From Escherichia phage phiEc_1, in the sequence record LC768462.1: DNA of 64,000 bases; one strand, 5' to 3'. Below, in pieces: positions 5,768 to 28,448 of the stretch. Under the pieces are notes generated by a model, which worked only from the letters and a program-made list of their open reading frames with translations, was not told the origin of the DNA and made no database searches. Made by a program: the position numbers and the translations under genes. Positions within the stretch are counted from its first letter, which is position 1, and each line of letters starts with the position of its first letter.

Positions 5768-5776
5768 TCGACGTCC

Positions 5777-8020: not shown

Positions 8021-8044
8021 CGATTCTCTCCCTCGGTTGATAGC

Positions 8045-8076: not shown

Positions 8077-8081
8077 TTACT

Positions 8082-10258: not shown

Positions 10259-10280
10259 TTTATACTCCTTCTACATTATC

Positions 10281-10309
10281 AACAACACAAAAAGCCTCCC
10301 AAGGGAGGC
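10281..10309 (-). terminator. hairpin plus U-run
   Basis: palindrome GCCTCCC..GGGAGGC followed by UUUUUGUG on minus strand. Confidence 0.5.
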
Positions 10310-10314
10310 AAACA

Positions 10315-10947: not shown

Positions 10948-11194
10948 CTGTCTCTCCCTTGCTGTAATCTTTGTATGTTTCTACTTTGTAAGTGCGGAAT
11001 GCTCTGAAGAAGAGCCAACCAAAACTACTTACATCAATTGTAATATCGAAATCTGTTTCATCATCTAAATCAACAAGACGACCTAAGCATGTAGCTTCCA
11101 TCACTTCTTCAGAGTCACTGTTGATTACAAAAGCGTATGTCTCCGTTCTGAACCGAGGCACCATCTCTGATAAAAAGTCTAATACTAAATTCAT
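10940..11194 (-). CDS. hypothetical protein
   Basis: 84-aa ORF overlapping previous by 8 nt. Confidence 0.35.
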   Translation of the reverse strand: MNLVLDFLSEMVPRFRTETYAFVINSDSEEVMEATCLGRLVDLDDETDFDITIDVSSFGWLFFRAFRTYKVETYKDYSKGETDE

Positions 11195-11214
11195 AATCCT
11201 TCTCCTCTGAATAA

Positions 11215-11435
11215 AAGTATAAAGGGCACATCATAAGACCTACCCGTAAAGGCCACCTCACATTAACACCCGTGAGAATACCTGTATTCATTTTCGTAGT
11301 CTTCTTCAGAGAAGCTACCGTATTCATCTTCTGTCATACATCCCTCTGATAAAGTTAAGACATAAAGGGGACGTCATCTTTGATGACTACTTCACATTAA
11401 GGCACCCCCATAAAGGCCATGTCACGTTAAGGCCT
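11215..11435. repeat. iteron-like repeats, at least 4 copies of TAAAGG(G/C)(C/G)AC.TCA
   Basis: copies at ~11220, 11246, 11362, 11410 in divergent intergenic region next to terminase genes. Confidence 0.5.
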
Positions 11436-12309
11436 ATCCATCCATGTGCTGTGTTTAAGCTTTCCACATTTACTACATCTCCAAGTGGACTTATAAAGGG
11501 TGTGAACTCTTTCATCCCCGTAAGCTTTGCGTATCCGATAGTACTCATGATCACATTTGAATTGCTTAATGATTAACTTAATTTTCCACATAAGTTCTCT
11601 TTCAACCTTATATATAAGAGTTTAAAATTCTGATTTGACCGAGTGGACCTAGCCGCTTCCCGCGTGTTTCCTAAAAAGGGGGAGTCCTCATTTAAAAAAG
11701 GGTTATTGGCAATGCCTTTAAGCCCATTCCCACGTTCCAACCTTTCCCCGTGCCTACTCCCCGTAATTATTCCCCCGTGTATACCATCCTATTCATTAGC
11801 TACCCGTTTATTTAGTTCCCCTTTAAAGAGTGAGAGAAAGGCCAGCACTGTACAGGCACTACCATAAGAGAGCTAATAATACCCATAAGTAATAGCTCAC
11901 ATCCCCCATAGTTACGTTGATAATAGTTTCAATAGTAATGATTATGAGTGCAATAATGATGTATGTATTAATTAAGTGGAAAGATTATGTTTGATGTTTA
12001 TTATATTCTTTTATTACTTTCTTTTTTCAGCGTTCTTTTATTCTTTTCTTTTAACGTTCGATGTGTATGAGTTTACATTAATAGTTAACTAATTATTTAA
12101 GTGGTATATTATTACCGCACTATCTTGCATGTTTCCCCGTGGTCTGTTCTGCGGTTGTTGTATCCCCGTTTGTCCTGGTCTGTTGGTCTGTTACCCGTAG
12201 TGTTATAAAGTAACAATATCTAGTAAGCTGATTCTCTGAGTATGGAAAGTTTAGTAAATTAAATTCCTTTAGTTTTCAGTGAGTTATAGGAAAGTTAGAA
12301 AATAAATGG

Positions 12310-12337
12310 TTGACAGCCTTTTCCTTTATTATATAGT
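12310..12337 (+). promoter_or_regulatory. sigma70-type early promoter
   Basis: TTGACA-16 nt-TATAGT with A-rich upstream, 45 nt before first early ORF. Confidence 0.65.
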
Positions 12338-12381
12338 TGCGATTGTAGTTTGTAGTTTTCATCAACCATAAGGAATATCAA

Positions 12382-13254
12382 ATGTCTAAAGTAGCAATTA
12401 ACCACTTGAACAAAGCAAACGAAAGCCTTTCCTCTTTAGGCTTAACCGTTGGTAGTCCTGATGCGTGGATGGAAAACGAAAGTGCACGTAAAGGATTCAA
12501 AAACTCAATCATGTTGGCTTGCTTGATCATCAATTCTACTGCGAACGCTTTACAGTGTGAAGATGAAAGCACGTTCAAAGAGAACGGTTTTACCGATATG
12601 CAGGACGCTATTAATTGCTACATTCAGGCTAATTTAGATAGCTGGAATCAGAAAGATTGGCCTGAGTCGTGCCGTGATGTGAAAGCTGAATTATCCCGCT
12701 TGTCTGTCATGGTTGAAGCATGGAACAAGAAAAACAAGAAACAGCCAATCAAGCCTACTGTTGCAAGTAAGATTATGAAGTCTGTTAATCTGGCAAGTTA
12801 TGCACTGGTTGCAGCTATTGGTGTTAGTGCACTGGTCACATCTCTTTCTGATAAGGCTATCGCTAGTCCTACTCCTGCAACTGATGCCGCTGATGTTTTC
12901 GCTAGTTCCATCAATAAGGGTTGGATGATTTGCAACGGTGCGGATAGTGATGGAAGTACTATTGTATTAAAAATGAAGTTTAGCAACGTAACTAATGATG
13001 GCGTTCTCTTTCAGTCTAAGACACTAGACAATCAGCCTAACAATGATCTAGTTCTCAAGCGCACCGATAGTGACTCGGATATGGTTACATTTGGCACTGT
13101 ACAACGTTACGAAGACGTTAAAGCTGTAACCAATCTAGTGAGTTATGGTCCGGTTAATGAGTCGATGATCGCCACTACCGTTTATAATAACGCTGATAAC
13201 GCTGTTTATACCGTTCACGTTAATTTAGCCAACTGCATTAAGGCTAGTAAGTAA
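12382..13254 (+). CDS. early protein, hypothetical
   Basis: 290-aa ORF after strong promoter; one hydrophobic segment. Confidence 0.7.
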   Translation: MSKVAINHLNKANESLSSLGLTVGSPDAWMENESARKGFKNSIMLACLIINSTANALQCEDESTFKENGFTDMQDAINCYIQANLDSWNQKDWPESCRDVKAELSRLSVMVEAWNKKNKKQPIKPTVASKIMKSVNLASYALVAAIGVSALVTSLSDKAIASPTPATDAADVFASSINKGWMICNGADSDGSTIVLKMKFSNVTNDGVLFQSKTLDNQPNNDLVLKRTDSDSDMVTFGTVQRYEDVKAVTNLVSYGPVNESMIATTVYNNADNAVYTVHVNLANCIKASK

Positions 13255-13278
13255 ATAACCTATTTTGGGAGTGTAAAA

Positions 13279-13545
13279 ATGGCTATCAAAGAAATTAAGT
13301 TATCTAATGGCTTTTCTTGTTTTGTTGGTGGAAGCTCTATCCTGTTTAATACACTTGATGGTCAGATAATCTTGCCTGTTATCACTTTTTGCAGGATGGA
13401 ATATCAGCCTCTTAAAGATTGGCTAGCCTTTGCTGATTTCGAAATTACCCGCGATGATTTCAGATCAATCTATATTGACGGTGATTTGTCGCTGGCTAAC
13501 CTGCTTAATCATGGTCTGATTGGGGATGATACCAATGGGAAATGA
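13279..13545 (+). CDS. hypothetical protein
   Basis: 88-aa ORF. Confidence 0.5.
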   Translation: MAIKEIKLSNGFSCFVGGSSILFNTLDGQIILPVITFCRMEYQPLKDWLAFADFEITRDDFRSIYIDGDLSLANLLNHGLIGDDTNGK

Positions 13546-13792
13546 AACTATCGCGCTAATTGATACGCATAATTACGGTGGCGTTACGTTATCCTTTGAT
13601 GAATCAGCCGACGTTGGCTATTTGTCTTTTCTTTCCAAAGGTGAGATACAAAATATACGCTTTCCTATTGTCTGTTTAGTGCAAGATTATATAACCGTTG
13701 GGAAGTATTTAGCCCAACGCGGGATTCTCCTGTCGCTGGAAGAAGTGGAACAGATTAGCGTAGCATTTTTTGGTGAGGATAGCAACCAATGA
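13520..13792 (+). CDS. hypothetical protein
   Basis: 90-aa ORF. Confidence 0.45.
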   Translation: MGMIPMGNETIALIDTHNYGGVTLSFDESADVGYLSFLSKGEIQNIRFPIVCLVQDYITVGKYLAQRGILLSLEEVEQISVAFFGEDSNQ

Positions 13793-13891
13793 TTCATGAT
13801 TATTTTTGGCGTTGCTTGTTCGTTGTTACAGTGGCGTTATTCGTCGCTGATATGCTTTATTCTTACATTCTCTAACTAAAGGTTTATTATC

Positions 13892-14257
13892 ATGGGTGTT
13901 ATCAAGTTTGTAGTGAAAGTATTTGTAGGCTTCTTTCTGGTTGTTCTCCTGTTAGGTGTCCTGCTGTCATCTATGGGTAGCGTTAAGGCTGCAACATTTT
14001 CCCCTGATACGGTTGACGGTTTACAGTGCACCTATTTGATAGAAAACTATGAAACTGGTAAAAAGTCACCTAAAGTTATTATTTTACATGTGAATGATTT
14101 CGAACATGTACAATCATACGATAAAACTATTCAACTGGTAAATGAAACTACCGGTAAACAAATTACGGTGGATCACTTGATGCGCTCATCGTTGACGCTC
14201 TTTGATGAGTCCATGAATGAAATGGCATCCGGTAACGGTCAATGTGTAAATCCATAG
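13892..14257 (+). CDS. membrane-anchored/secreted protein
   Basis: N-terminal hydrophobic segment FVGFFLVVLLLGVLL. Confidence 0.55.
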   Translation: MGVIKFVVKVFVGFFLVVLLLGVLLSSMGSVKAATFSPDTVDGLQCTYLIENYETGKKSPKVIILHVNDFEHVQSYDKTIQLVNETTGKQITVDHLMRSSLTLFDESMNEMASGNGQCVNP

Positions 14258-14516
14258 GCTTAATCTTTCTCCTGTATTGTGCCGTAGTCATGCCTATGGT
14301 CATAATTTATCTGATTCTCTAATCCTTCCTGTAAGCCTCCTAGTGAGGCTTTTCTCTTTTATGAGGTGATTGTATGCCTTACTCCCTTTTAGCTCGTTGT
14401 GATGCGTTTTAGGCCGCTAAATATCGCTTTACAAGCCGTTTTCTATGATGTATCGCGTGCGCCTGCTCTTTTACCTTCCTATAGTGAAAAAGTTTAAAAT
14501 AATTTGCTTTACCCTA

Positions 14517-14544
14517 TTGCAACCTCATCTGATTAGCGTATACT
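14517..14544 (+). promoter_or_regulatory. candidate sigma70 promoter
   Basis: TTGCAA-16 nt-TATACT. Confidence 0.45.
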
Positions 14545-14576
14545 TCATTTCATCGGGTACGATGTAAAACATACAA

Positions 14577-14605
14577 GGCAAGAAATTGCCCCGCTCTTTA
14601 AAAAT
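14577..14605 (+). promoter_or_regulatory. boxB-like hairpin + boxA-like element (antitermination site 1)
   Basis: GGCAA-GAAA-TTGCC hairpin then CGCTCTTTAAAAAT. Confidence 0.55.
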
Positions 14606-14641
14606 CAGGCTAGAAAGTGAAAATATTCTCAAAAAAGAGTA

Positions 14642-14670
14642 TTGACACCGGAAAAAGCCTGATATATAGT
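14642..14670 (+). promoter_or_regulatory. strong sigma70 promoter
   Basis: TTGACA-17 nt-TATAGT, A-rich UP-like element upstream. Confidence 0.7.
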
Positions 14671-14677
14671 GAGCATA

Positions 14678-14714
14678 GTCAGCGATGACTTAAAAAATCC
14701 CGCTCTTTAAAAAT
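14678..14714 (+). promoter_or_regulatory. boxB-like hairpin + boxA-like element (antitermination site 2)
   Basis: GTCA-GCGA-TGAC hairpin then CGCTCTTTAAAAAT. Confidence 0.6.
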
Positions 14715-14972
14715 ATGATTTGTCTTACGGGTGGCGGCGACGTCATTACTATAAGGCGCTCAGTTAATTGGTAGAATTGATTCCTGATTCATACGTGACG
14801 CAGGCGGACAATAAGCAATATCAATAAGCCTTATTTGTTCGATACTTTCAAAAGATTAATGCTTGAAAGCGCACTAGATTCCCTGAAAGACAAATCAGAC
14901 TTATCATCTTGCCCTTTCGCATAGATTCACGCGAGATAAGGGAAAGGAATTAAAAGAAGATGATAAAAAGAG

Positions 14973-15001
14973 TTGCAAACGTGGTTAAAGTAGTCCATAC
15001 T
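14973..15001 (+). promoter_or_regulatory. candidate sigma70 promoter
   Basis: TTGCAA-17 nt-CATACT. Confidence 0.4.
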
Positions 15002-15160
15002 AACCACAAGTTAGCAAAACATCGCTAACTAGTTCCCAAATCAACGTATCGCGGGAAAGGTGGCACATAGTGCAGCGATTAGTTCAGGTGTAGGCGGCCT
15101 GTTAATGAATCAGTAAGCCTTCAATGTGACAGTGATTAGCAGACACTTTAAAAGGCTAAA

Positions 15161-15174
15161 CGCTCTTTAACAAT
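15161..15174 (+). promoter_or_regulatory. boxA-like element (site 3)
   Basis: CGCTCTTTAACAAT, closest match to the rrn boxA core as I recall it. Confidence 0.5.
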
Positions 15175-15274
15175 ATGAGTCATAAGTTAAGCCTCACCGC
15201 TTAATCTTCAATCAAATAAAGCTGATTGATATATCCTCCCAATAGCGGGAACGACGAAAAAGATTAAAAAGCGG

Positions 15275-15303
15275 TTGACAGCGAAAACAACATGATTCAT
15301 AAT
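15275..15303 (+). promoter_or_regulatory. strong sigma70 promoter
   Basis: TTGACA-17 nt-CATAAT, A-rich upstream. Confidence 0.7.
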
Positions 15304-15364
15304 GAGCACTCACTAAGCAAATCATCGCTTCAGTGAAAAGCGTAACAACGGCTAACAGTTGCAT

Positions 15365-15407
15365 AGTGTGAGAAAGCACACTGATAGATTTACCGCTCTT
15401 TAATAAT
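15365..15407 (+). promoter_or_regulatory. boxB-like hairpin + boxA-like element (antitermination site 4)
   Basis: AGTGTG-AGAAAG-CACACT hairpin then CGCTCTTTAATAAT. Confidence 0.6.
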
Positions 15408-16226
15408 TTAAACATTCTCCTATATCGGTTGAATATGCTTGATGATAATAACCATCGGAAAGCATACCAGATAAAACGGCGTAAAACTCCCTAAATTATC
15501 AGGGTAAACAGTTTTACATTCCCTTACTGGAAACGTCACCATTGATAAACGGATTCATTGAGTACACGCAAAGACTTGAGCTAATCGCCCACGGTTAAGG
15601 GTAGCGGCGGTCATTGCTAACACGGTGCTACAGTGAAAGAAGTTAATCAGGGTAGGCAATCCCGACGAATTAACGCTCAATTGAGAGCGGCGGGGAGTGG
15701 TTAAAAAGTGGCAAATTGCTATTTAACAATAAGGTTTAGTGTGAACGTTTACAATGTGAACGGCTTGAGATTCATCTTATGATGAAAGTACATAGTCGGT
15801 TTATGTAGTAAACTTGCCGAAAGATATAAAACGTCGGAACATTAGACGGTCAATGACTCTTTCGCAATAGTATCCCGTAGTGGGCGATGACTAGCGATTG
15901 AGAGTTGATATAAAAGGATAGGCGAGAGCGAAAGCAAAGTAAACGATATTGCCGACGGTTACAATAACGTAACTAATTAGAGTCGGACGCACTGCCTTAT
16001 TGTGATGATTGATCATCGCTATCAGGTCGGCTTCGTTTATAGCGACTAATTAAAGATACCAGATGAAACATCACGGATAAGGGGGCGGCAAGGTTAACTC
16101 CTGATAAGACCGCCCCGCTTACCTATAACTACTTAACAACGAGTGGTTATAGTTAAGTTAATAGTGACTTAAACAAGCTCATAGAGAGCGGGGCAATAGC
16201 GCCCTTACAATTGAAAGGTGAATATT

Positions 16227-17126
16227 ATGGCTAAAATCTTTACTCTGGTTAACGAATCCGGTTTTAATGCTCTGGCTAACAACATTCGCAGTAATAACGC
16301 GGCGATCAAACAAGATGTTTCTAACTTCCTGTTAGGTCATTTGCAGCACTTTCGTAGCAACGGTAAGAAGTTAGATGTATTGCAGGCGGCGGTTGACTTC
16401 CTGTTAACCGAACGTTTCCGCGATATGGATGTTATTGCCACCGCGATTACTTTCTTAACTCCTATCAAGTTTAACACCGATGCGGCAAATGGTCGTAAAA
16501 AGTGGATTAATCTGGAAGGTGAGGCGAAAGCTAAAGAAGATGCGAAAGAAGCGCAAATTAAGGCCAAAATGGAACAAAACCGCGCTCGCTGGTCAAACGC
16601 TTTCGAAAACTTTGCATTAGGTCGTGCAATTGAAGTGGATAATCCTAACTTCTACAAAGGTTGCAATGACAACGTGGCGGCACACCTGCAAATTCCGGCG
16701 AAAAACAAGGAAGATTTTAATCAGGATATTTACGCTTTGGTTGAACGCTTGAATGCAATCCGTATTGAAGCCAAATTACTGGCTGATGAGCGCAACGGCG
16801 CAACCAGCGATAACACTATCGCCCTGAGTGAAGAAGTTGGGAAGGTTAAAAAGTCCTTTGATTCACTCATCAAGAAAATCACGGCCTCGACGGTAGCGAT
16901 CTCGGATGATTATCTGATGAACGCATCAAGCAAGGAATTAGAATCACTCGATTCATACGCTGATGAAATGGAAAAGACTGTTGCAGCTATGCAGGAGAAG
17001 TTAGAAAGTCTGCGCGGTCGTATCTCTTCAACGGTTGCTACCCGTAGCGAACAAGCGGCGAAAGCAGAAGAGGAAGAAGTATTGCGTAAAGCGGCTGAAA
17101 TTATGGCGGCACGTCAAGCGGCATAA
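16227..17126 (+). CDS. early protein, hypothetical
   Basis: ATG with GAAAGGTG SD (track start 16218 is GTG); 300 aa, coiled-coil C-terminus. Confidence 0.7.
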   Translation: MAKIFTLVNESGFNALANNIRSNNAAIKQDVSNFLLGHLQHFRSNGKKLDVLQAAVDFLLTERFRDMDVIATAITFLTPIKFNTDAANGRKKWINLEGEAKAKEDAKEAQIKAKMEQNRARWSNAFENFALGRAIEVDNPNFYKGCNDNVAAHLQIPAKNKEDFNQDIYALVERLNAIRIEAKLLADERNGATSDNTIALSEEVGKVKKSFDSLIKKITASTVAISDDYLMNASSKELESLDSYADEMEKTVAAMQEKLESLRGRISSTVATRSEQAAKAEEEEVLRKAAEIMAARQAA

Positions 17127-17952: not shown

Positions 17953-18396
17953 GTGGCTAAATCTAAAATCAGCATGAAGGGCGGGCGTTGTTTTGCTATC
18001 TCTGAACTAGAGAAAGAGAAACCGAAGGCAACTAATCACGTTAGTAAGCGTAGTTTAAAACGTCGTGCTGCAAAGGCTGAGGCTGAATCCCATGTTCCTT
18101 CCAGTGTGGCAAAGCGTGTAGGCCATCGTGTCCATCGGGCTGATGCGTTGTTGTTGGCTGATCATAAACGTTCTTTGTTAAAGAGCGGGGGAGCTAAAAC
18201 AGAAGAGGAGAAGAAGTTAGAAATCTTCTGTAATGGTCGCACCCGTGGTAAACAGAAGTTTAAAGGTAGCACGAAAGACCCGCAGGCTTTCCCTAAGACA
18301 AGCCAGTGTGCACCTGATGTTTTCTACGCAGATAGTAAACACAAGTGGGGCGTTGAAAAATACATTGACCCCATCAAAGAGGCAAGGGTTAAGTAG
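17953..18396 (+). CDS. basic protein, hypothetical
   Basis: 147-aa lysine/arginine-rich ORF. Confidence 0.55.
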   Translation: MAKSKISMKGGRCFAISELEKEKPKATNHVSKRSLKRRAAKAEAESHVPSSVAKRVGHRVHRADALLLADHKRSLLKSGGAKTEEEKKLEIFCNGRTRGKQKFKGSTKDPQAFPKTSQCAPDVFYADSKHKWGVEKYIDPIKEARVK

Positions 18397-18476
18397 TAGG
18401 AATATAGCCCCCTCTTTTAGTACTATGACGCTCTTTCTGTAGCGTCGTGCCCTCTCCCCATTTGAAGCTTCCGCAT

Positions 18477-18499
18477 AGCCGCCTTTGAGCGGCTTTTTG
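18477..18499 (+). terminator. intrinsic terminator
   Basis: AGCCGC-cuuuga-GCGGCU + U5. Confidence 0.6.
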
Positions 18500-18561
18500 C
18501 GTTGCTGTAAGTGCATTTGCGAGTGTATTTATAGCAACGGTCATGTGTTGCTTTCAGGTTT

Positions 18562-18587
18562 GCCCCGGCTACGGCTGGGGCTTTTTT
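18562..18587 (+). terminator. intrinsic terminator/attenuator
   Basis: 8-bp GC-rich stem with UACG loop + U6, 27 nt before next ATG. Confidence 0.6.
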
Positions 18588-18613
18588 ATGTCTACTGTAT
18601 AGGAATCTATGAA

Positions 18614-19348
18614 ATGAAAGCAATTGTATTATCCTCAATCCTAGCTCTGTCCGTAATGGCATCGCCTGTTTTTGCTAAAAGTGGAAACAATGGCAATGGC
18701 AATGGAGGTTGTGGTGTAGGTCAATCTACCAATGGTTGCGGTATCGGAGATTGGTTTAAAGGTGAAAAAGGTGATCAGGGAGAGAAAGGCGACACTGGCG
18801 CTAATGGCATTGATGGTAAAGATGGCATTGATGGTAAAGATGGCATTGATGGTAAAGATGGCATTGATGGTAAAGATGGCATTGATGGAGAACAAGGCGC
18901 TCAAGGTGAAAAAGGTGATTCTGGTGCAGATGGTAAGAAAGGCGAAACTGGCCTAACTGGTGCAGCAGGTTTGAATGGCGTTGACGGATTAAATGGCAAA
19001 AACGGTAAAGATGCAGATATGTCTGCCGTTAATGCTAACGCCAAATCCATCAAAGCTCTGGAACAATCCACCAATAAACGTTTTGCTTCTTTGCAAAAAC
19101 AAGTAGACCGTAACCGTGATCATGCCTCTGCTGGTATTTCTGGCGTGGCTGCAATGGCTAACATCCCGCAAGTAAGTCAAGGATCTGCTTTCTCTGTTGG
19201 TGCTGGGGTAGGTGCTTACGATGGTGAATCTGCTCTTGCTATTGGTGTTAGTGCTCGTTTCAATGAAAACTTAGTAACTAAAGCATCAGTGGCAATGACT
19301 TCAGAGAGTGACGCTGTTCTGGGCGCTGGTGTAAGTTACGAGTGGTAA
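18614..19348 (+). CDS. secreted collagen-repeat protein with YadA-like C-terminal anchor (trimeric-autotransporter-like)
   Basis: signal peptide MKAIVLSSILALSVMASPVFA; Gly-X-Y repeats; C-terminal anchor-like region ending VSYEW. Confidence 0.65.
   Translation: MKAIVLSSILALSVMASPVFAKSGNNGNGNGGCGVGQSTNGCGIGDWFKGEKGDQGEKGDTGANGIDGKDGIDGKDGIDGKDGIDGKDGIDGEQGAQGEKGDSGADGKKGETGLTGAAGLNGVDGLNGKNGKDADMSAVNANAKSIKALEQSTNKRFASLQKQVDRNRDHASAGISGVAAMANIPQVSQGSAFSVGAGVGAYDGESALAIGVSARFNENLVTKASVAMTSESDAVLGAGVSYEW
18806..18877. repeat. 18-bp perfect tandem repeat x4 (GGCATTGATGGTAAAGAT), encodes GIDGKD
   Basis: read directly; fifth diverged unit follows. Confidence 0.9.
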
Positions 19349-19458
19349 GATAGTGCCTCTCCCGAAAGGGAGGGGTGTTTCTATAAGCATCTTTTCGAGG
19401 GTGTTTATTGAAACAACAAAACAGGAGGTAGCAAGTTCTGATAACAACGGCACAGCTA

Positions 19459-19848
19459 ATGTTGACATTGACTATTTATTATGAGGCAGGGAATCAGCCA
19501 ACCGCATGTAAGGCTTTAGTTGCGGATACCGTGATAAATAGAATGGCCCAACGAAAACTGACCGCTGAACAGGTGATAAGACAGAAGAACCAGTTTGAGT
19601 GGATTCCGGTACTATTAAAACAGGAGAAACCTTATAAACGTTATGTAAAGCTGATTCGTGATAAAAATCCGATGACTAAGCAAGCCATTGGAGAAAGCGA
19701 GCGACTTGCTAAACGTGCCCTTAAGAAGAATTATGTTCCGCTGTACAGTGGGACTTACTTTCAGAGTAAGAGCGAAGGGGTGCCAAAATGGTATGCCAAT
19801 CCTATGTATTGTGGTGATTTAGTGTTCGATAATAGCTCTAGGGAATAA
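19459..19848 (+). CDS. SleB/CwlJ-like cell wall hydrolase domain protein
   Basis: YYEAGNQP..VADTVINRM..QFEW motifs; weak SD so start uncertain. Confidence 0.5.
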   Translation: MLTLTIYYEAGNQPTACKALVADTVINRMAQRKLTAEQVIRQKNQFEWIPVLLKQEKPYKRYVKLIRDKNPMTKQAIGESERLAKRALKKNYVPLYSGTYFQSKSEGVPKWYANPMYCGDLVFDNSSRE

Positions 19849-20048
19849 TCACTAGTGCCAGATTTGACAAACTAAATTCCTTTATAAACCAACCACTTAG
19901 TAAATTTATCGAAAAAGATGGTAGTATTCTGGGACTATGGGTAATGCTCTGTATATAGACCCTTTGAAAATTTCTTAGAAAATAAGTTTACTAAATATAA
20001 CTTACTTAAATAATATTACTTTTAATCTCTGATAAAGGGTAAAATGAT

Positions 20049-20345
20049 ATGACTTTAGAAGTATATAAATTCCTTTTTGTAAGCTGTTTAACTATCAGCG
20101 TTATAGGATTTATTGTTCTCAGAAACAAAGCAGCAAGCTGGGAAAGAATGTATAAATCCCTAGTTCGAGTGGATGAGATGTATAATGAGAAAGTTAAAGT
20201 AACACTCAACGATCTTATTATGCAAGTTGAAGACAGAAATAAGCGTCTTCAGAACCTCAACCATGAAGTATTACGACTTGCTCGTGCTAATGAAGACTTA
20301 CGAGTGGCTATTGCTAAGCAGCAGGAGATTAACAGTGAAAGTTAA
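20049..20345 (+). CDS. membrane-anchored coiled-coil protein
   Basis: N-terminal hydrophobic segment then heptad-like region. Confidence 0.5.
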   Translation: MTLEVYKFLFVSCLTISVIGFIVLRNKAASWERMYKSLVRVDEMYNEKVKVTLNDLIMQVEDRNKRLQNLNHEVLRLARANEDLRVAIAKQQEINSES

Positions 20346-20571
20346 TATTAAATCCGATCGTACAATGCTTCGCTTAAATAACATGAAGCCGGGCGTTCTA
20401 TTTGAGCGTAAAGACTCTCTTTATATTAGAACCGACACACTATACGCAGATAACTATGTGAACTGTGTTGATGTGGTAACTGGAAAGCTCATGCCTTTTA
20501 AACGGGATGAAGTCTGCCAAGTACGTAGTGATCTTCACATAACCAACATAGAGGCTAAAGATGAAGATTGA
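20335..20571 (+). CDS. small paralog family member 1
   Basis: GTG start with AGGAG SD; shares MK..L..G.VF...V.L..G pattern with 7 other ORFs. Confidence 0.5.
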   Translation: MKVNIKSDRTMLRLNNMKPGVLFERKDSLYIRTDTLYADNYVNCVDVVTGKLMPFKRDEVCQVRSDLHITNIEAKDED

Positions 20572-20812
20572 TCTTGAGATGAAAGCTAAAGAATTGTGTG
20601 TGGGTGATTTGAAACTTGGTGATGTATTCCAAGTTAAGGCAACATGTATTGATTATTACATGATCGTTCAGTTATATACACCACATGTGTCAGAGACTGA
20701 TCTTCGGAATGGTTGTGTAGTGCTCAGTTTAAGCACCAATCAAGTAATGAAGCTAGATTCAAACTTACCTGTTTCAGTTATCCATGATGCAGTAATTACC
20801 AATCGGAAGTGA
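20561..20812 (+). CDS. small paralog family member 2
   Basis: paralog pattern (LKLGDVFQV...). Confidence 0.55.
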   Translation: MKIDLEMKAKELCVGDLKLGDVFQVKATCIDYYMIVQLYTPHVSETDLRNGCVVLSLSTNQVMKLDSNLPVSVIHDAVITNRK

Positions 20813-20814
20813 AT

Positions 20815-21027
20815 ATGAACATTGAAAAGAAGGTTGTTGACGAGGCTGTTCAGTTACGATCTCTTGAAACACATGATGTATTTGTGTGGGGAGGCAGTCT
20901 GTTTCAGAAATCTGCTTATGCTGTAGAGGGCGGGGTTCGTTGTTTTAATATCTTCAACAATGAGATGCAAATCCTTCCTAACTTCGCTCATGTTAATAAA
21001 CTTATCCACCTTTCTATATATCAATAA
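20815..21027 (+). CDS. small paralog family member 3
   Basis: paralog pattern (LETHDVFVW...). Confidence 0.5.
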   Translation: MNIEKKVVDEAVQLRSLETHDVFVWGGSLFQKSAYAVEGGVRCFNIFNNEMQILPNFAHVNKLIHLSIYQ

Positions 21028-21037
21028 GGGCAATTAG

Positions 21038-21256
21038 ATGGAAATTAAAGTAGTTGATTATCCTAAATATGCAAATGCAGAGGACGTTAAAGGTGGTGAT
21101 GTTTTCTCTTATGATAAACGTTTCTGGCTGATGCTAGAAGATAAAACCCCTGATGGTTTGTGTAAGGCTGCTAACTTGAGCAGTGGTTCTGTTGAAGTCT
21201 TCGGTCTATCAACCACTGTTATGCCACGACCTGATCTGTGTTTATCCCAAAAGTAA
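21038..21256 (+). CDS. small paralog family member 4
   Basis: paralog pattern (VKGGDVFSY...). Confidence 0.55.
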   Translation: MEIKVVDYPKYANAEDVKGGDVFSYDKRFWLMLEDKTPDGLCKAANLSSGSVEVFGLSTTVMPRPDLCLSQK

Positions 21257-21614
21257 CACCGACTTATAGCCCTTGTGTTTATCAGAGGGCTATGTGAGGG
21301 TGTTCCTCATTAACTTATTAATTCAGGCATATGCCACACCGCTAGGGAGAGCTTGCTCGAACATCCGGTGTTAGACTAAAACCTGTTAATTTTCGAAAGA
21401 CTTTCCGATATGTAGGGGTACGTATTGGTTTGGGATTCAGGAGACTTCCTAGGGGTAGGGAGTCTTCACCAGTTGGAATAAGAGATAGCTCTAGAACCTG
21501 AACTCTTAGGCAGAGAAGGTCGGCAATGAGTACGCGGTCAGGGTTAGTCTACTGACTAGGGCTATCCCTTATATCAACTGGCAATAATGCCTCCACTAAC
21601 AAAGAGAGATAGGT

Positions 21615-21755
21615 ATGAAAGTATCAACCAAACGTATGAACCGCCCTGAACGTATGGATGCAGTAGCTAATGGTGCTCTGAAACTGGAAGGCTTTTGGAT
21701 TCATGCAATGTCAGCCATCCGTAACAAGCAAGGTAATTGGACGTATAACAGTTAA
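21615..21755 (+). CDS. small hypothetical protein (46 aa)
   Basis: short ORF followed directly by a terminator. Confidence 0.35.
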   Translation: MKVSTKRMNRPERMDAVANGALKLEGFWIHAMSAIRNKQGNWTYNS

Positions 21756-21763
21756 TAAATAAA

Positions 21764-21794
21764 AGGCTGCCTTCGGGTGGCCTTTGTTGTTTTA
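21764..21794 (+). terminator. intrinsic terminator
   Basis: GGCUGCC-UUCG-GGUGGCC + U-rich tail. Confidence 0.6.
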
Positions 21795-21836
21795 ATTAAG
21801 GGACAACTCTTACTTAAACTAACAAGAGGTGCTTAT

Positions 21837-22190
21837 ATGAGACGCATGGTTAAAGATTGGGTCACTAAATCAGGTCTTCGTGCTGTGATTATGCACATGA
21901 ACGACTCCCATTTTTGTGGATATGTAGAGCTACCAGACAGCTTAAAACATAAAAACTTCACCGGATATAACGGAAAGGAAGAGGTTTGTTATGTAAGTGT
22001 TCATGGTGGTGTCACATGGCAAGACACCCTTGAAGAGATGGGTGGTTTAGATACAATCGGATTTGATTGTGCCCATGCAGGTGATAAGACACGGTTCAAC
22101 CCTAACGGGATACCAAGAACAGAAGAGTTCTGCGTTAATGAATGCGAACAATTGGCTGAACAACTAAGAGATCTAGAATCAAATGTCTAA
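21837..22190 (+). CDS. hypothetical protein
   Basis: ATG with AAGAGGTG SD; 117 aa. Confidence 0.55.
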   Translation: MRRMVKDWVTKSGLRAVIMHMNDSHFCGYVELPDSLKHKNFTGYNGKEEVCYVSVHGGVTWQDTLEEMGGLDTIGFDCAHAGDKTRFNPNGIPRTEEFCVNECEQLAEQLRDLESNV

Positions 22191-22359
22191 GCAAATAATC
22201 AAACATACGCAAGCTGGTTACTCTTATGTCAACTCTCCTTGCTGCGGTGCTCGTATTAGTCTGGTTAAGGAAGAGGTTCGTATTGTTCAGCGTGGCGCTA
22301 CTGTTGTTCGTTCATGCTGTGTCTGTGGTAATGACATTTTTATCAAAGGTAAAGTATGA
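22183..22359 (+). CDS. small Cys-rich protein
   Basis: 58 aa with CC..//..CCVC; start/stop overlaps with both neighbours. Confidence 0.4.
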   Translation: MSKQIIKHTQAGYSYVNSPCCGARISLVKEEVRIVQRGATVVRSCCVCGNDIFIKGKV

Positions 22360-22607
22360 AAAACTTCCAAGCTGCACCAATCACTAAAGTGATCGAAGTT
22401 GATGGTATAATGATGACTGTTCCTCTGAACACTCGTTACATTGCAATTGACAAGATGGGTTATGTATGGGCTTGGAAGATCAAGCCTAGTTATAACGCAT
22501 TGTTTGATGAGTTTGTTTGTACTGGAACTTACAGTCCCACATTCTTAGGTTTATTTGGAGAATTTGATGGTAAGCATAAAATCATCACACTCCCTGCTTG
22601 TGCTTGA
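22356..22607 (+). CDS. hypothetical protein (paralog of next gene)
   Basis: 83 aa; similar to 22615-22848. Confidence 0.5.
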   Translation: MKNFQAAPITKVIEVDGIMMTVPLNTRYIAIDKMGYVWAWKIKPSYNALFDEFVCTGTYSPTFLGLFGEFDGKHKIITLPACA

Positions 22608-22614
22608 GGTTAAT

Positions 22615-22848
22615 ATGAAAGGAAAAGAGGTTAAATATTTTGGCGAAGTTGTTAAAGTGGACAGCTCTATAAGATATTTAGCAACTGATAGCAACGGCGA
22701 GGTATATGGGTTTACCCATAAGCCAGAAATTCGTGGGTATGCTTGGGCACTTCCTTATGGGACTCCGTTCGAGACGGGAGGAGCTGTTTATCTTAACGAT
22801 AATGGACCTCTGTTTGCATGGAAAACATCTCTCGTTGAGGTGGTGTAA
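22615..22848 (+). CDS. hypothetical protein (paralog of previous gene)
   Basis: 78 aa. Confidence 0.5.
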   Translation: MKGKEVKYFGEVVKVDSSIRYLATDSNGEVYGFTHKPEIRGYAWALPYGTPFETGGAVYLNDNGPLFAWKTSLVEVV

Positions 22849-23022
22849 TTATGTTCAAGTGGTTTAAACGTCTATTCCATCTGCATGATTGGGAGACAAT
22901 AAAAGAAATTCGTTTACACATATATAATGAGATCGGTCAAATAGAAGACACAGGTACTCGTTATATACTTCGATGTAAAACATGTGGTCATATCACCAAA
23001 CGAGATATGATCTAAATCTTAT

Positions 23023-23095
23023 GCGCTCTTAGCTCAATGGATAGAGCAGTAGCCTTCTAAGCTATTGGTTACAGGTTCGAGTCCTGTAGGGCGCA
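23023..23095 (+). tRNA. tRNA-Arg (anticodon UCU); CCA encoded at 23096-23098
   Basis: hand-folded cloverleaf: 7-bp acceptor stem, D-arm, anticodon loop CU-UCU-AA, T-arm ACAGG-TTCGAGT-CCTGT. Confidence 0.9.
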
Positions 23096-23117
23096 CCAAA
23101 TCTAATAGGAGGTAATT

Positions 23118-23417
23118 ATGAGTTGGGGTGGTGTAATATCCTTAATCTGTATCTTCCTTGTCTGCATAGCCCTTACAGGCTGCGTACAGAGCCGTCCTGA
23201 TGGATGGTGTGCAGTAGCAGTGGAAGGTGTTTGTGTTTCTCGCTGGCATAAGGGTGAGAAGATTCCTTCTGGTGAAATTGATATGCGATGGAACGGAGCA
23301 ACCTGTTCTAATGCTAACCCTTCTATCAACGAAGAGAAGTCTACACCGGATAATGTTGTTATTGATACAGCATTGTGGTGTGGTGGCTCTACGATTACAA
23401 CCGGTAAGGAGTGGTGA
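23118..23417 (+). CDS. lipoprotein
   Basis: signal peptide with lipobox LTGC. Confidence 0.6.
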   Translation: MSWGGVISLICIFLVCIALTGCVQSRPDGWCAVAVEGVCVSRWHKGEKIPSGEIDMRWNGATCSNANPSINEEKSTPDNVVIDTALWCGGSTITTGKEW

Positions 23418-23418
23418 T

Positions 23419-23616
23419 ATGAATTACACATCTACAAAGGTGTTAATTGATTCGATTAATAACTCCTCAGAAACTGTACAGGAGCGTTTAATACAAGATG
23501 TTAGCAATGACATTAAGTTCTTTGTTAAGAGCCGCCTGTTAGGTTCTAAGGCTTATTACAGAGCTAAAGCAGAGCTTACAAAGAGGATGTTTCTTTTACA
23601 TGGTTTGGTATATTAA
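23419..23616 (+). CDS. hypothetical protein
   Basis: ATG with AAGGAG SD 7 nt upstream. Confidence 0.45.
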   Translation: MNYTSTKVLIDSINNSSETVQERLIQDVSNDIKFFVKSRLLGSKAYYRAKAELTKRMFLLHGLVY

Positions 23617-23625
23617 GGAACTTAT

Positions 23626-23847
23626 ATGAAACTAGACTCTAAGCAGTCACTTAAAACTGTTGAATTGTCCACGCTGCCAAACGGAAGTATTTTTGGTCAT
23701 GATAAACACTTCTGGATTAAAACAGACATCATAGACGATGGATATATCACCTGTGTCAATCTTTGGAACGGCTCAGTGGATGGCTATCGCCCTAGTGCAA
23801 AAGTAGTCCCTCAGCCTGATGCAAAGGCTACAGGTTTAGTTTACTAA
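23626..23847 (+). CDS. small paralog family member 5
   Basis: paralog pattern (LPNGSIFGH...). Confidence 0.5.
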   Translation: MKLDSKQSLKTVELSTLPNGSIFGHDKHFWIKTDIIDDGYITCVNLWNGSVDGYRPSAKVVPQPDAKATGLVY

Positions 23848-23856
23848 GGAGCCTGT

Positions 23857-24030
23857 ATGAGTTGTTTTGGTGGCGGTGAAGTAGATGACGATGATGACAT
23901 GGAATCCAACGGTACATGTCCTGATTGTGGATGTGAGACGTTTGATGGGGTGTCTGTTTATCCTGCCTGTAGTTACTCACCAGTGATCTGTAAAACATGT
24001 GGTGATCAGCCGTGTGACCAATCTTGTTAA
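23857..24030 (+). CDS. small acidic Cys-rich protein
   Basis: 57 aa, 9 Cys. Confidence 0.35.
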   Translation: MSCFGGGEVDDDDDMESNGTCPDCGCETFDGVSVYPACSYSPVICKTCGDQPCDQSC

Positions 24031-24182
24031 GAGAATCTTATGACTGAAGAATTTTTAGAGTGGTTTGGGAACACCTTCAAAGATTATCTATTCTCTCCAG
24101 AAGACTTTGAAGAACTGAAAACCTACACTTGGTTGGCTTGGAGAGATAGCCGACGAAAGTTGAACAAGTAAGAGACGATTAA

Positions 24183-24440
24183 ATGGGTTTACTTGATATT
24201 TTTATCTCAGTTTACTTTATTGGAGTATTCCTTTCTGTCTTAGTGATGAAACTGCTATACAAGAAAGGTCTACTAAAAGGGGTCATTACAACAGGGTCTA
24301 CCAGCTCTGAACCTGATGAGATGATGGTTGTTCTCTTAATTGTGTTGTGGCCTATCTCAATACTGTCAGGAGTTTTTTATCCAATAGGTTGGCTTCTGTT
24401 TAAAGCATATGATGCAGTTATGCATTTTATCTTTAAGTAA
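24183..24440 (+). CDS. small membrane protein
   Basis: 2-3 hydrophobic helices. Confidence 0.5.
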   Translation: MGLLDIFISVYFIGVFLSVLVMKLLYKKGLLKGVITTGSTSSEPDEMMVVLLIVLWPISILSGVFYPIGWLLFKAYDAVMHFIFK

Positions 24441-24730
24441 TATCGTGAAGGATTCTTACGAGAGTCCTTTGAGATAGGACTTCAGATCTCCTATCAAACT
24501 AACATTCATGTAACTAGCCCATAAGGGCGTTACCCTTTAATAACCCAGCCCACTAAGGGGGCGGGAGTTTAGTGCTGGATTAGCATAACGCTTATTCCTA
24601 CAAAGGCAACCGATTGTTAGATCTTACATGCAATATTAACTAATAGGATAAGGGAGGATTCGTCCCCTCCCCCTATTTTATTGAATCTTTATCTAAGCAA
24701 GTCTTATATAAACGTTTAATTGGAGGATGT

Positions 24731-25042
24731 ATGAAAGCACGAAGAACTATATGGACTCCGATGCAGATTGAAAATCTTCGGAGACTGATCAAAGAGTACT
24801 CGGTTCAAGAAGTTGCTCAGATTATGAATGTAACGGAGAATGCTGTTAACACAGCTTGCACTAAATTCGGAATATCAAGAGCTTCAATCCGAGTCAAGTG
24901 GTCTAAAGAAGAAGATCAGTTCCTTATCCGTAATGCCGGGTTTATGTCTATTCAGAGAATGGCTGACATGCTTGGTAGAAGTTATGCTGCTGTACAGAAC
25001 AGGGCATGTATGCACCTTAATATTAGCCTCAAACTTAAATAG
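24731..25042 (+). CDS. putative DNA-binding protein with tandem HTH-like repeats
   Basis: two ~45-aa repeats resembling sigma region-4 / Myb-like HTH. Confidence 0.45.
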   Translation: MKARRTIWTPMQIENLRRLIKEYSVQEVAQIMNVTENAVNTACTKFGISRASIRVKWSKEEDQFLIRNAGFMSIQRMADMLGRSYAAVQNRACMHLNISLKLK

Positions 25043-25050
25043 GAATCAAT

Positions 25051-25299
25051 ATGAAGATTACTCACAAGAAAGAAGAAGTGTCCACGGTTGATATCAACTC
25101 TCTTCCTAGTGGAGCAGTATTTAAATTCCCTGAGAGTTCTACTCTCTATGTCAAAGGGTCTGTGTCTGAAAGTCCTAATGTAACCGTTAACTCCGATCGA
25201 GCAATCACTCTTCGTCTATCTGATGGTAACGTAACAGCCCCTTCTATCTGGTGCCGAGTTGTCCCTGTATCGGCAGAACTTTTGGTGGATAATACATAA
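25051..25299 (+). CDS. small paralog family member 6
   Basis: paralog pattern (LPSGAVFKF...). Confidence 0.5.
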   Translation: MKITHKKEEVSTVDINSLPSGAVFKFPESSTLYVKGSVSESPNVTVNSDRAITLRLSDGNVTAPSIWCRVVPVSAELLVDNT

Positions 25300-25544
25300 T
25301 GAAAATCATCCCAAAGAAAAAGGATAATACGGTTCGATTGGAAACAATCATTCCCGGAAACCCCTTCGTAGTTCAGCACGGAAGTGCCTCTCCTCAGTAT
25401 TATATGAGGGTTGAAAATGCTTCTGGTAACATCCGTATAGCCAGTGGCTGGGTTCCTGTAGTAAATCTATCCACAGGTGCACTGTCTGTTAAAGGTCTTG
25501 ATGATCAGGTAGAAATGATTCGTATGTCTGTGGTTCAGGAGTGA
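25299..25544 (+). CDS. small paralog family member 7
   Basis: paralog pattern (IPGNPFVVQ...). Confidence 0.5.
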   Translation: MKIIPKKKDNTVRLETIIPGNPFVVQHGSASPQYYMRVENASGNIRIASGWVPVVNLSTGALSVKGLDDQVEMIRMSVVQE

Positions 25545-25792
25545 GAATGAGCACGATACATATTAAGGTTCACAACAAAGAAAAAAAGAAACTCTTTGTT
25601 AAAGATCTGTCAACCGCTGACATCTTTACTTTAAAAGATGATGACAGTCAGGTCATTTATTTGATGATGCCTCTATCTGGTGGATATCGCAGAGCAGTTA
25701 ATTTAGGTACAGGCGAACCTCGTCCTGTTTCTGACACTCTTGAAGTTGGCGAGAAGTTTGCCAAAGCAGAGATCATCTTAACTCCGATGTAA
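25541..25792 (+). CDS. small paralog family member 8
   Basis: paralog pattern (LSTADIFTL...). Confidence 0.5.
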   Translation: MRMSTIHIKVHNKEKKKLFVKDLSTADIFTLKDDDSQVIYLMMPLSGGYRRAVNLGTGEPRPVSDTLEVGEKFAKAEIILTPM

Positions 25793-26025
25793 GGGTAAGT
25801 AAGTGAAAACAAAAGCATATTCTTATGATGATATGATCAACCAGAAAGGCTTCGGTCAACGCCAGCCTGACGGTTCAATTATCTGGTTTGTAAACGGACA
25901 GAAAAAGGTAGCTAAATAAGCCCTCTTCTCTCCTCCTTTTAGTACTATGACGCCTCTCTGTGGGCGGCCCAATTTGCGTAGGGAATTCCCTCTACGCAGC
26001 CATGACTTTTTAAGGAATTTCCCCT

Positions 26026-26259
26026 ATGTCTAAAGTAAGTGCAATTGATGCAATCCGTCAACCGTTCCAGTTCCAATCCAAATCAACCCAAACCTTCAGC
26101 GAACCTAAGCAAATTCGCTTGGGTGGCACAGAGAAAACTGTGTTCGATCTGGCTAAAAACAAGAGCGTTACCGTAGTTGATGGTGGCACTCTGGTTAACG
26201 TTTCTCATCGCATCCGCACTGGCAAAACTGCCAAAGATCGTGCTAAGAAAGGCGAGTAA
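26026..26259 (+). CDS. hypothetical protein
   Basis: 77-aa ORF. Confidence 0.5.
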   Translation: MSKVSAIDAIRQPFQFQSKSTQTFSEPKQIRLGGTEKTVFDLAKNKSVTVVDGGTLVNVSHRIRTGKTAKDRAKKGE

Positions 26260-27238: not shown

Positions 27239-28438
27239 ATGTTTCCAGTAACATTAGAAGATACTGAAGGTAATGTTTTAACAGTCAACCCTCCTTGTTA
27301 TGGGTTCCTTCAGCTTCGCAACTATAACGGTGGCGTTGATGAAGACGATGAAGAGTATGATGACTACTTCGACCCTAACATGTATGAGGCAACTCATGGA
27401 TGGAATATGCACGTTCGAGTGTGGCATGAAGAAGCTAACGTTCGTAGTGCTGATGGGGAAGAGTTCCTGTTAAGCCGAGAGATGGATATGTGTAAAATCA
27501 AGCATATCTGGAACTCTGGAACTCATATGAAGATGTTAGGTTTTAGACGTTGGCGTGATGAAAAGCATGTAGCTGAAGCTTTAAGTTGGTGTTCGTATGA
27601 AGATGAAGACACGCCCCCTAAGAACAACATCGAACGTTGGAACGACAAAAACCCTGAGCATCGAACCACACCTCGTGCTGTACTGGAAGCTATGGAAGCA
27701 TTTGTGGACAAAGATCGTCCCTCCTGTTTACGCTGGCACGATAAAGGTTTTATGGGGGTAGCAACTGAGAATATCCCTGCTGATCGTTGTCTGTTCTATT
27801 TGATGTTAGACCGAATCTTCTATTGTGAAGATGAAGAGAGTCAAGTTGAAACCTTCCTCCATAAATGGTTGGTTGAAGGCTGGACAATCCTTCAGGCTTA
27901 TGTTTACTCACGAATGGTTAGCACTTACACTAACCTCTTAGGGGAAACGAAAGCAACTCTGGTTGGTAATGATTGGGATGCTTGTATCTTCCCAGCGTCG
28001 CTGTTTACAGTTGGCATGGCTAATAAATACGCTGAAGCATTTCAAGTGCCTTGGCGTCAACAGTCATATAGAGATGGATGCGGTCATTTCCGTGATGAAG
28101 ACTTTAAGTGGATTCATTACGAGAATGATGAAACAGCAGAATTACGAGTTAACAACTCAATGTTCTTGCCAGTGATGCACCCCGATCTAGTAAAAGACGG
28201 GTCAGAGACACTTAAAGGTGATAATCTTTTGGTTAACTTTACCCGTCGCGTGTCTAAAAATGAGAAAACAGCTAACAGGTTAATCTACGGCATTCGTGCC
28301 GAGGCTAAAGACCTGTTCAACATCTACAACATCATTCAGCGATTTAGTAGTGGAACTCTGGACCAAAGTTCGGAGTATTCAGTGATTCCGTCCTCTGAGT
28401 GGGATGGTATTATGAGCGGATTATTTTTAGGAAAATAA
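27239..28438 (+). CDS. hypothetical protein, first gene of ligase/amidotransferase cluster
   Basis: 399 aa, acidic, no recognisable motif. Confidence 0.6.
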   Translation: MFPVTLEDTEGNVLTVNPPCYGFLQLRNYNGGVDEDDEEYDDYFDPNMYEATHGWNMHVRVWHEEANVRSADGEEFLLSREMDMCKIKHIWNSGTHMKMLGFRRWRDEKHVAEALSWCSYEDEDTPPKNNIERWNDKNPEHRTTPRAVLEAMEAFVDKDRPSCLRWHDKGFMGVATENIPADRCLFYLMLDRIFYCEDEESQVETFLHKWLVEGWTILQAYVYSRMVSTYTNLLGETKATLVGNDWDACIFPASLFTVGMANKYAEAFQVPWRQQSYRDGCGHFRDEDFKWIHYENDETAELRVNNSMFLPVMHPDLVKDGSETLKGDNLLVNFTRRVSKNEKTANRLIYGIRAEAKDLFNIYNIIQRFSSGTLDQSSEYSVIPSSEWDGIMSGLFLGK

Positions 28439-28448
28439 AAGGTTAGTT

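Follow-up and report, generated by a model that had tools for sequence, protein, structure and literature searches.

For about 50 years it has been known that some phage genomes carry programmed nicks, T5 first, then phiKMV-like and LUZ24-like phages, and we know of no agreed function for them in any phage that carries them. We consider here an 18-nucleotide motif, CTTTTAGTACTATGACGC, present twice in a stretch of 64,000 nucleotides from Escherichia phage phiEc_1 (LC768462.1; this whole stretch is called the window below), whose core has the sequence of such a nick site. For phage tf of Pseudomonas putida, 14 nicks on one strand at TACT/RTGMC (the slash marks the cut) were demonstrated by sequencing, primer extension and denaturing gels on which their effect was reversed by ligase (PMC3517423). 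Read ends of the P. aeruginosa phages P1-14Or01 and Ab22 pile up at GTACTATGAC/GTACTGTGAC (PMC3634792, PMC4482731), and for Rembedalsseter the native Nanopore depth falls to zero on one strand at WACTRTGAC, which is enriched in 61 related phages (PMC11780129). The nicks of T5/BF23 and of phiKMV-like phages are sequence-specific, strand-specific, ligatable, present in virion DNA and crowded towards one end; they are dispensable in the laboratory and have no known function (PMC3517423). What we propose below for Kuravirus would be the same phenomenon; the consensus is nevertheless different in those phages—R/GCGCRGG for T5 and CGACNNNNNCCTA/CTCCGG for phiKMV-like phages—and the lineages are unrelated.

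The window belongs to a phiEco32-like phage (Kuravirus, Gordonclarkvirinae; 94–98% identity), and, over the arm of early genes, its plus strand corresponds to the phiEco32 record in reverse complement. An earlier note, made from the letters alone, had reported the exact 18-mer at two sites, each after a gene stop, and had held it too long to be a chance repeat; coordinates and stops proved correct.

18414–18431, plus strand: copy 1 of CTTTTAGTACTATGACGC, between the phi32_120 and phi32_119 homologues; supported by exact match, context and conservation
25936–25953, plus strand: copy 2 of CTTTTAGTACTATGACGC, between the phi32_94 and phi32_93 homologues; supported by exact match and context

Copy 1 starts 18 nucleotides past the stop of the phi32_120 homologue (open reading frame, ORF, 17953–18396) and copy 2 starts 16 nucleotides past the TAA (25917–25919) of the phi32_94 homologue; both lie between genes of the early operon, in the sense orientation. 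No further match was found in the window with up to three mismatches allowed, and none of 100 dinucleotide shuffles gave the two-copy outcome, which agrees with a repeat that is not fortuitous. The likeness between the copies spans about 35–40 nucleotides and includes a related stretch downstream (CTCTTTCTGTAGCG at copy 1, CTCTCTGTGGGCG at copy 2). As to the search of related genomes that the note had advised, both positions are conserved in phiEco32, WFI101126, NJ01 and more than 70 other records; eight IMG/VR matches to a 16-mer were discarded as chance because of their unrelated coding context.

What had escaped the earlier note is the identity of the core: GTACTATGACG(C) equals the nick consensus 5'-TACT/RTGMC-3' of the Pseudomonas phages, and by homology the cuts are predicted as follows.

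18421–18429, plus strand: core TACTATGAC, fits TACT/RTGMC; predicted nick at 18424/18425
25943–25951, plus strand: core TACTATGAC, fits TACT/RTGMC; predicted nick at 25946/25947

Both copies have a G on the 5' side of the core and GC on its 3' side (aG-TACTATGAC-GC). The consensus occurs 9 times in LUZ24 and 14 times in tf, all on one strand in each; the LUZ24 sites take the form G-TACTRTGAC-G(C), with the G before in 9/9 and the G after in 8/9. Site 1 of phiEco32 is TACTGTGAC, and its sole difference from the core of the window falls at the tolerated R position. We therefore think it rather probable that both 18-mers serve as programmed nick sites and are homologues of the LUZ24-like ones. 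A depletion of near-matches to the consensus (14 for 27.9 +/- 5.3 in shuffles) was dropped as an argument, 14–25% of permuted-word controls being equally rare.

Kuravirus is related to the LUZ24/tf lineage through its replication and packaging genes. By tblastn of the window against LUZ24 and tf, the major capsid protein, scaffold, portal, large terminase subunit (TerL, 37–40%) and COOH-NH2 ligase (40%) are shared, together with an amidoligase, a glutamine amidotransferase and an ATP-grasp enzyme; on the replication side are a primase-helicase (45–47%), a DNA polymerase (39–40%), 3'-5' and 5'-3' exonucleases, and a member of the family phrog_4590 (62–63%).

The bases next to the core also inform on what reads it. 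Sites 1 and 2 of phiEco32 read TTAG-TACTRTGAC-GC, and a third site, on the other DNA strand and inside late gene 26, reads CTAG-TACTGTGAC-GG, so that TAG flanks all three; the gene 26 site is intact in this form in phiEco32, NJ01 and one metagenomic kuravirus. The three sites of KBNP1711 (Nieuwekanaalvirus) begin with CAAC-, CAAC- and CAGC- before TACTGTGAC-G, and its gene 26 copy, CAGC-TACTGTGAC-GG, is preserved inside an indel-rich coding stretch of 74% identity. Within each kuravirus, then, 3–4 flanking bases vary together at all sites while the core is invariant; such concerted change at dispersed sites argues for a single trans-acting reader of the DNA. The window itself carries a third site that has decayed.

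61278–61288, minus strand: AGTACTGTGAT, degenerate third site in the gene 26 homologue; a change of GAC to GAT (Thr to Met) breaks the consensus

This is a natural site-loss variant, useful as a control.

Co-evolution of the flanks implies a trans-acting reader that is not necessarily a nuclease, and the sites could thus be operators for a phage or host protein that binds DNA without cutting it and regulates early transcription or replication. A candidate would be the early helix-turn-helix protein of 24731–25042 (the phi32_99 homologue), since a protein of this type, like region 4 of sigma-70, is encoded between the two sites. We judge an operator quite unlikely nevertheless: cutting at this very sequence has been demonstrated for related phages, the motif lacks the symmetry of most operators, and in 7-11 and LUZ24-like phages the sites are scattered in coding regions, not at promoters. 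The regulator binding site suggested by the earlier note is retained in the broad sense of a recognition signal bound by a protein, the evidence favouring a nicking enzyme that acts on DNA over a transcription regulator. The same data bear on another possibility, that an intergenic cassette was duplicated or gene-converted and left a remnant without function; this would explain a likeness extending beyond the motif as in a duplicated segment, all the more as site 1 borders a variable region (an extra upstream gene in WFI101126, a downstream adhesin gene present or absent). However, both copies are kept across Kuravirus and Nieuwekanaalvirus, their change is concerted and not independent, and the core recurs in distant genera and at the third site, inside a coding region; we hold a remnant to be very improbable.

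The reading as nick sites gains from the relatives of phiEco32. The consensus is enriched in Salmonella phage 7-11 (a recognised phiEco32 relative), in uncultivated phages of 82–90 kb (L023-25) and in Proteus phage Privateer, but not in Kuravirus itself. Phage 7-11 has 13 matches to TACTRTGMC for about 1.4 expected per strand: 12 of them lie on the strand that is sense for early and middle genes, 7 are found no more than 14 kb from the early end, and the common form is AC-TACTGTGAC-G. L023-25 and Privateer display the form AC-TACTGTGAC, only on that same strand. Over 80 loci anchored on the shared ligase gene, 83 sites were counted on the strand of this gene and 18 on the other, about 21 being expected per strand. 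Outside Kuravirus, conservation stops 1–3 nucleotides from the 9-mer.

At some of these sites the annotated start codon of the gene downstream is the RTG of TACT-RTG-AC: tf_04, tf_15 and tf_41 in tf (2102/2103, 5267/5268 and 20794/20795), and one gene of 7-11 (record position 83744). A nick would there hit the first base of the ORF; this overlap may be a real preference or an annotation artefact.

For an enzyme acting on the TACT/RTGMC class, no paper naming one was found in the searchable literature. Of the proteins that tf, LUZ24, 7-11 and phiEco32 have in common, the one with the strongest conservation (59–84% identity) belongs to phrog_4590, a family of basic proteins of about 100 amino acids without assigned function, which comprises phi32_58, LUZ24 gp26, tf_29, 7-11 gp068 and the product of 46419–46736 in the window.

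46419–46736, plus strand: small basic protein of 105 amino acids, phi32_58 homologue, phrog_4590, with invariant D-H...GG...N-L...N; candidate nicking enzyme, a function proposed from these features
46374–46382, plus strand: gp36-type promoter motif TAATGTATA, exact, 37 nucleotides upstream of the candidate gene; published phiEco32 middle promoter P58

An alignment of 26 diverse homologues leaves D56-H57, G64-G65, N71-L72 and N80 invariant, residues which, as far as the alignment tells, form an HNH signature without the zinc-binding cysteines; some sources label members of the family HNH or McrA. The protein compares with small HNH nicking endonucleases, such as Gme HNH (4h9d), by its length of about 100 amino acids, its putative beta-beta-alpha-metal core and its D-H...N...N signature. 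It departs from them, and from the HNH proteins that are terminase partners in phages, by the absence of zinc-binding cysteines; its highly conserved basic N-terminal half matches no described domain, and its gene stands in the replication module and not beside the terminase. Gene 58 is among the phiEco32 genes with gp36 promoters (PMC8948821), and a gene behind a gp36-dependent middle promoter suggests a protein made after the early phase.

Two further candidates were rejected. The larger HNH endonucleases (phi32_30/31; LUZ24 gp30/gp40) have no tf homologue and look like mobile homing-type genes. As for the terminase, the direct terminal repeat junctions of tf, LUZ24 and phiEco32 are devoid of the consensus, with a weak CT^A resemblance at the phiEco32 boundaries only.

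The family phrog_4590 was found in 246 phage records, from phages of Pseudomonas, Escherichia, Salmonella, Cronobacter, Proteus, Aeromonas, Vibrio and Pantoea. At 44 IMG/VR loci anchored on the HNH gene, 72 sites were observed on the strand of the gene for 9.6 expected, and 8 for 12.2 on the other. When Kuravirus and eight LUZ24/tf-type genomes were removed, 27 sites were left for 6.1 expected (Poisson P 5e-10), the other strand having 8 for 7.8. Control loci (61 that have the ligase cassette and no HNH gene in the locus) gave 17 for 13.6 on the gene's strand and 18 for 16.8 on the other. One uncultivated contig, L149 (IMGVR_UViG_3300006802_000901), is likewise enriched on one strand but in the inverted orientation: relative to a partial match to the HNH gene (residues 7–46 only), its five consensus sites are all on the other strand, an inversion that may come from a rearranged or fragmentary gene. 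That the protein of 46419–46736 is the nickase of the motif is a proposal that we make tentatively.

The favoured scheme would run as follows. A phage enzyme, for which the small HNH-type protein of 46419–46736 is the likeliest candidate, would read duplex DNA at (CTTTTA)G-TACT^ATGAC-G(C) and cut the motif-bearing strand only, between T and A, that is at 18424/18425 and 25946/25947 of the plus strand. Since this enzyme would come from a gp36-dependent middle promoter, the nicks would be made after early transcription, while replicated DNA accumulates. Packaged genomes would then bear ligatable nicks about 6.8 and about 14.3 kb from the early (right) physical end; these distances follow from the terminal repeat, which is present in a single copy (193 bp) at 11651–11843, the assembly being thus permuted relative to phiEco32. 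Support for the scheme comes from the identity with the nick consensus, the kinship of the lineages, the one-strand enrichment in relatives, the co-evolution of the sites and the statistical association with the HNH gene. From these we infer the nicking of kuravirus DNA, the exact position of the cut, the identity of the enzyme and the timing.

A broader scheme is conceivable, which we hold with some reserve. The family phrog_4590 and TACT^RTGMC might form one ancestral nicking system of a large podovirus group, made of the Pseudomonas LUZ24-like phages, the enterobacterial phiEco32-like and 7-11-like phages and many uncultivated relatives, with a minimal cysteine-free HNH nuclease as the enzyme. 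In Kuravirus the enzyme would have gained a longer recognition sequence, and 2–3 sites only would have been kept in the genome. Two of them would mark fixed boundaries in the early operon, at about 7 and 14 kb from the first end to enter the cell; genome entry, early transcription or packaging could be checked there by the nick or by the bound enzyme.

Compared with the nick sites of LUZ24-like phages and tf (Bruynoghevirus, Krylovvirus), those of Kuravirus have the identical core, the preferred G before and G(C) after, variation only at R and a sense orientation within the early region; common to both sets of phages are, in addition, the genes for replication and packaging, those of the amidoligase group and the one for the small HNH-type protein. 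On the other hand, Kuravirus has 2–3 sites per 77 kb genome, for 8–14 per 45 kb in LUZ24-like phages and tf; its sites have a longer shared flank (CTTTTAG...GC) and an adjacent hairpin, two out of three are intergenic, the third is on the other strand, and nicking is in its case only predicted.

Several of these points, and others, weigh against nicking in Kuravirus or against the proposed enzyme. The bare 9-mer has 2 sites in the window for 1.0–1.8 expected, which is not above chance, so that the case rests on the extended identity and on the comparative data. No paper on nicks in Kuravirus was found in the searchable literature, outside which the primary phiEco32 papers lie, and physical nicks in kuraviruses or 7-11-like phages are predicted from sequence. 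Both copies in the window are on the plus strand, and phiEco32, NJ01 and KBNP1711 have their third site on the opposite one, unlike the strict one-strand rule of tf. Conservation in Kuravirus extends beyond the 10–12 nucleotides of the other lineages, to a pyrimidine-rich 5' flank and the hairpin, and this could reflect a second or different function; flank and hairpin could for example serve an added RNA-level or regulatory role in the early operon, the chief competitor of the nick-site reading, though one compatible with nicking. As regards the enzyme, the AlphaFold model has a strand-strand-helix at 53–81 with a low predicted local distance difference test score (pLDDT 67.6). About 20 of 26 Foldseek matches are HNH nucleases, the Gme HNH nicking endonuclease 4h9d being on top, with a best E value of 1.4 that is not significant; the Pfam HNH family gives E 0.1, for the 7-11 homologue only and below threshold; and a profile search of Protein Data Bank sequences with the small protein returned no match. 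The Kuravirus sites are distant from the candidate gene. Lastly, Cronobacter phage A24 encodes the HNH protein without enrichment of sites (1 site in 60 kb), Aeromonas phage LAh_9 has 0 sites in the 40 kb sampled though it encodes the protein, and the association between gene and motif is confounded by shared ancestry.

The earlier note had described about 15 nucleotides of related sequence followed by a hairpin. The related stretch stands, except that it already folds into a small hairpin, with the end of the motif as its 5' arm; the larger hairpins downstream are unlike at the two sites.

18427–18446, plus strand: small hairpin GACGC-N10-GCGTC, arms 18427–18431 and 18442–18446; overlaps the 3' end of the motif and is longer as RNA, with G-U pairs
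25951–25966, plus strand: small hairpin CGCCU-N6-GGGCG, arms 25951–25955 and 25962–25966; position equivalent to that of the site 1 hairpin
18477–18494 and 18562–18581, plus strand: two intrinsic terminators, downstream of site 1 and upstream of the adhesin-like gene; also annotated in WFI101126

Folded as RNA, the site 1 hairpin reaches -11.5 kcal/mol (z -3.7), a stability equalled in 0 of 200 shuffles; at site 2 the hairpin has no gain in stability over shuffled sequence (z 0.08). The site 1 hairpin contains CGCTCTTT, a string that in our view resembles the boxA of lambda or of rrn operons and that site 2 lacks. Most kuravirus copies retain the stem: the variants of site 2 in relatives have 4–6 base pairs, including a paired C/G insertion, while the site 1 copy of KBNP1711 has a stem of 3 base pairs only. 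Site 2 is followed by a TGCGTAGGG/CCCTCTACGCA stem (25975–25998) that does not score as a terminator, and no intrinsic terminator was found after site 2 in a scan of 25800–26150.

These structures raise the possibility of an RNA element in the long early transcript, whose motif, hairpin and pyrimidine-rich flanks would act before terminators as a processing, stability, pause or anti-termination (nut/put-like) signal. The intergenic and sense position of both copies in the early operon would suit such an element, as would the two terminators directly behind site 1, the unusual stability of its hairpin with the boxA-like string, and the conservation of the stem with its paired insertion; besides, the anti-termination mechanism of the 7-11 phage group has been called undefined (PMC8948821). 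A known counterpart would be the nut sites of lambda (boxA plus boxB hairpin): each genome likewise has two of them, which follow early promoters, precede terminators and include a short hairpin. Yet the boxA-like string is lacking at site 2, whose hairpin is not significant and precedes no terminator; loop and stem are unlike boxB, no N-like protein was identified, and the Rfam search gave only a tRNA-Arg (23023–23095) and sub-threshold noise, with no family at the motif. The motif accordingly departs from the pattern of lambda-type nut sites, and a shared RNA hairpin as the common feature was rejected, since it is significant at site 1 only. The part that is invariant across genera is the 9-mer, the nick consensus, and not the hairpin—reduced to 3 base pairs in KBNP1711—or the flanks. 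Moreover, copies of the 9-mer in coding regions occur in varied frames, and tf, LUZ24 and 7-11 each have a few sites that run antisense to the gene in which they lie, which argues for recognition of DNA rather than RNA. We regard an RNA element as unlikely, and the processing signal envisaged in the earlier note as weakly supported at best.

The promoter that had also been envisaged fares worse. A promoter for the downstream gene or a small RNA, dependent on host sigma-70 or on phage gp36, would accord with the location of both copies upstream of genes and with TACTAT in the motif, which has A2 and T6 of a -10 hexamer. However, a sigma-70 scan (-35/-10, spacing of 16–18 nucleotides) found no promoter-like site in 18300–18700 or 25800–26150; neither a -35 nor an extended -10 is present at either site, and the upstream regions are dissimilar and C/T-rich. 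The phage sigma factor gp36 recognises tAATGTATA, 6–8 nucleotides upstream of the start site (PMC4281155, PMC12276001). This consensus is unlike the motif; it is absent from 18380–18460 and 25900–25975 and occurs elsewhere in the window, e.g. at 46374. Published phiEco32 promoters precede genes 6, 13, 26, 40, 58 and 68, not 119 or 93 (PMC8948821). With the gp36 middle and late promoters of phiEco32 the 18-mer has in common to be a short phage-specific motif recurring in intergenic regions of one genome; it differs by its sequence, by its location in the early and not the middle or late region, and by its absence from the mapped promoters. Both types of promoter were thus rejected, and we give this explanation hardly any credit.

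An element of another kind, TTGCTG-N18-TATTTA with a short hairpin (GCAACGG...TGTTGC), lies between the two terminators of site 1 (18500–18560, plus strand); it is kept in all kuraviruses examined and is below the threshold of the promoter scan.

If the two 18-mers are indeed nick sites, the same nicking system exists in phiEco32 of E. coli and in 7-11 of Salmonella, which are well studied and genetically tractable. As the Kuravirus system is reduced to two or three sites, each could be mutated individually; under the broader scheme, the nickase would be identified, and a minimal E. coli model would be at hand for the purpose of genome nicks. The naming of a candidate nuclease of 105 amino acids turns an old descriptive puzzle into an experimentally tractable question. 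Nicks at fixed positions also affect long-read sequencing, the start points of assemblies and the prediction of termini, and several such phages are candidates for therapy. Finally, the candidate enzyme could serve biotechnology as a compact sequence-specific nicking endonuclease.

Some features of the surroundings deserve mention. Both boundaries of the phiEco32 terminal repeat read GCT^AG(C/G)C, and AGCCTTTCTCTC after the left boundary is loosely like the pyrimidine-rich GCCTCTCTGTG after the motif, a likeness too weak to be interpreted. About 4 kb of the window (about 12000–16200), which separate the terminal repeat from the first long ORF of the early region (16218–17126), contain short ORFs only, and the GC skew changes sign there; this region, the counterpart of the sparsely annotated 72.8–77.5 kb of phiEco32, presumably houses the early promoters.

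Directly downstream of site 1, the gene of 18614–19348 (plus strand) encodes collagen triple-helix repeats and a YadA-like membrane anchor, and is labelled 'tail protein' in RefSeq and 'agglutinating adhesin' in GenBank. Its product appears from these domains to be a trimeric autotransporter adhesin-like protein. Since two terminators precede the gene within the early operon and WFI101126 lacks it, it looks like a moron-type accessory gene.

The ligase cassette occupies 27239–35696 of the window (plus strand), with a COOH-NH2 ligase, an amidoligase, a glutamine amidotransferase, an ATP-grasp (RimK-like) enzyme and a gamma-glutamyl cyclotransferase; it was compared with LUZ24 5443–13075 and with tf. 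This cassette is common to Kuravirus, 7-11, A24, Privateer, LAh_9, LUZ24-like phages and hundreds of uncultivated viral contigs.

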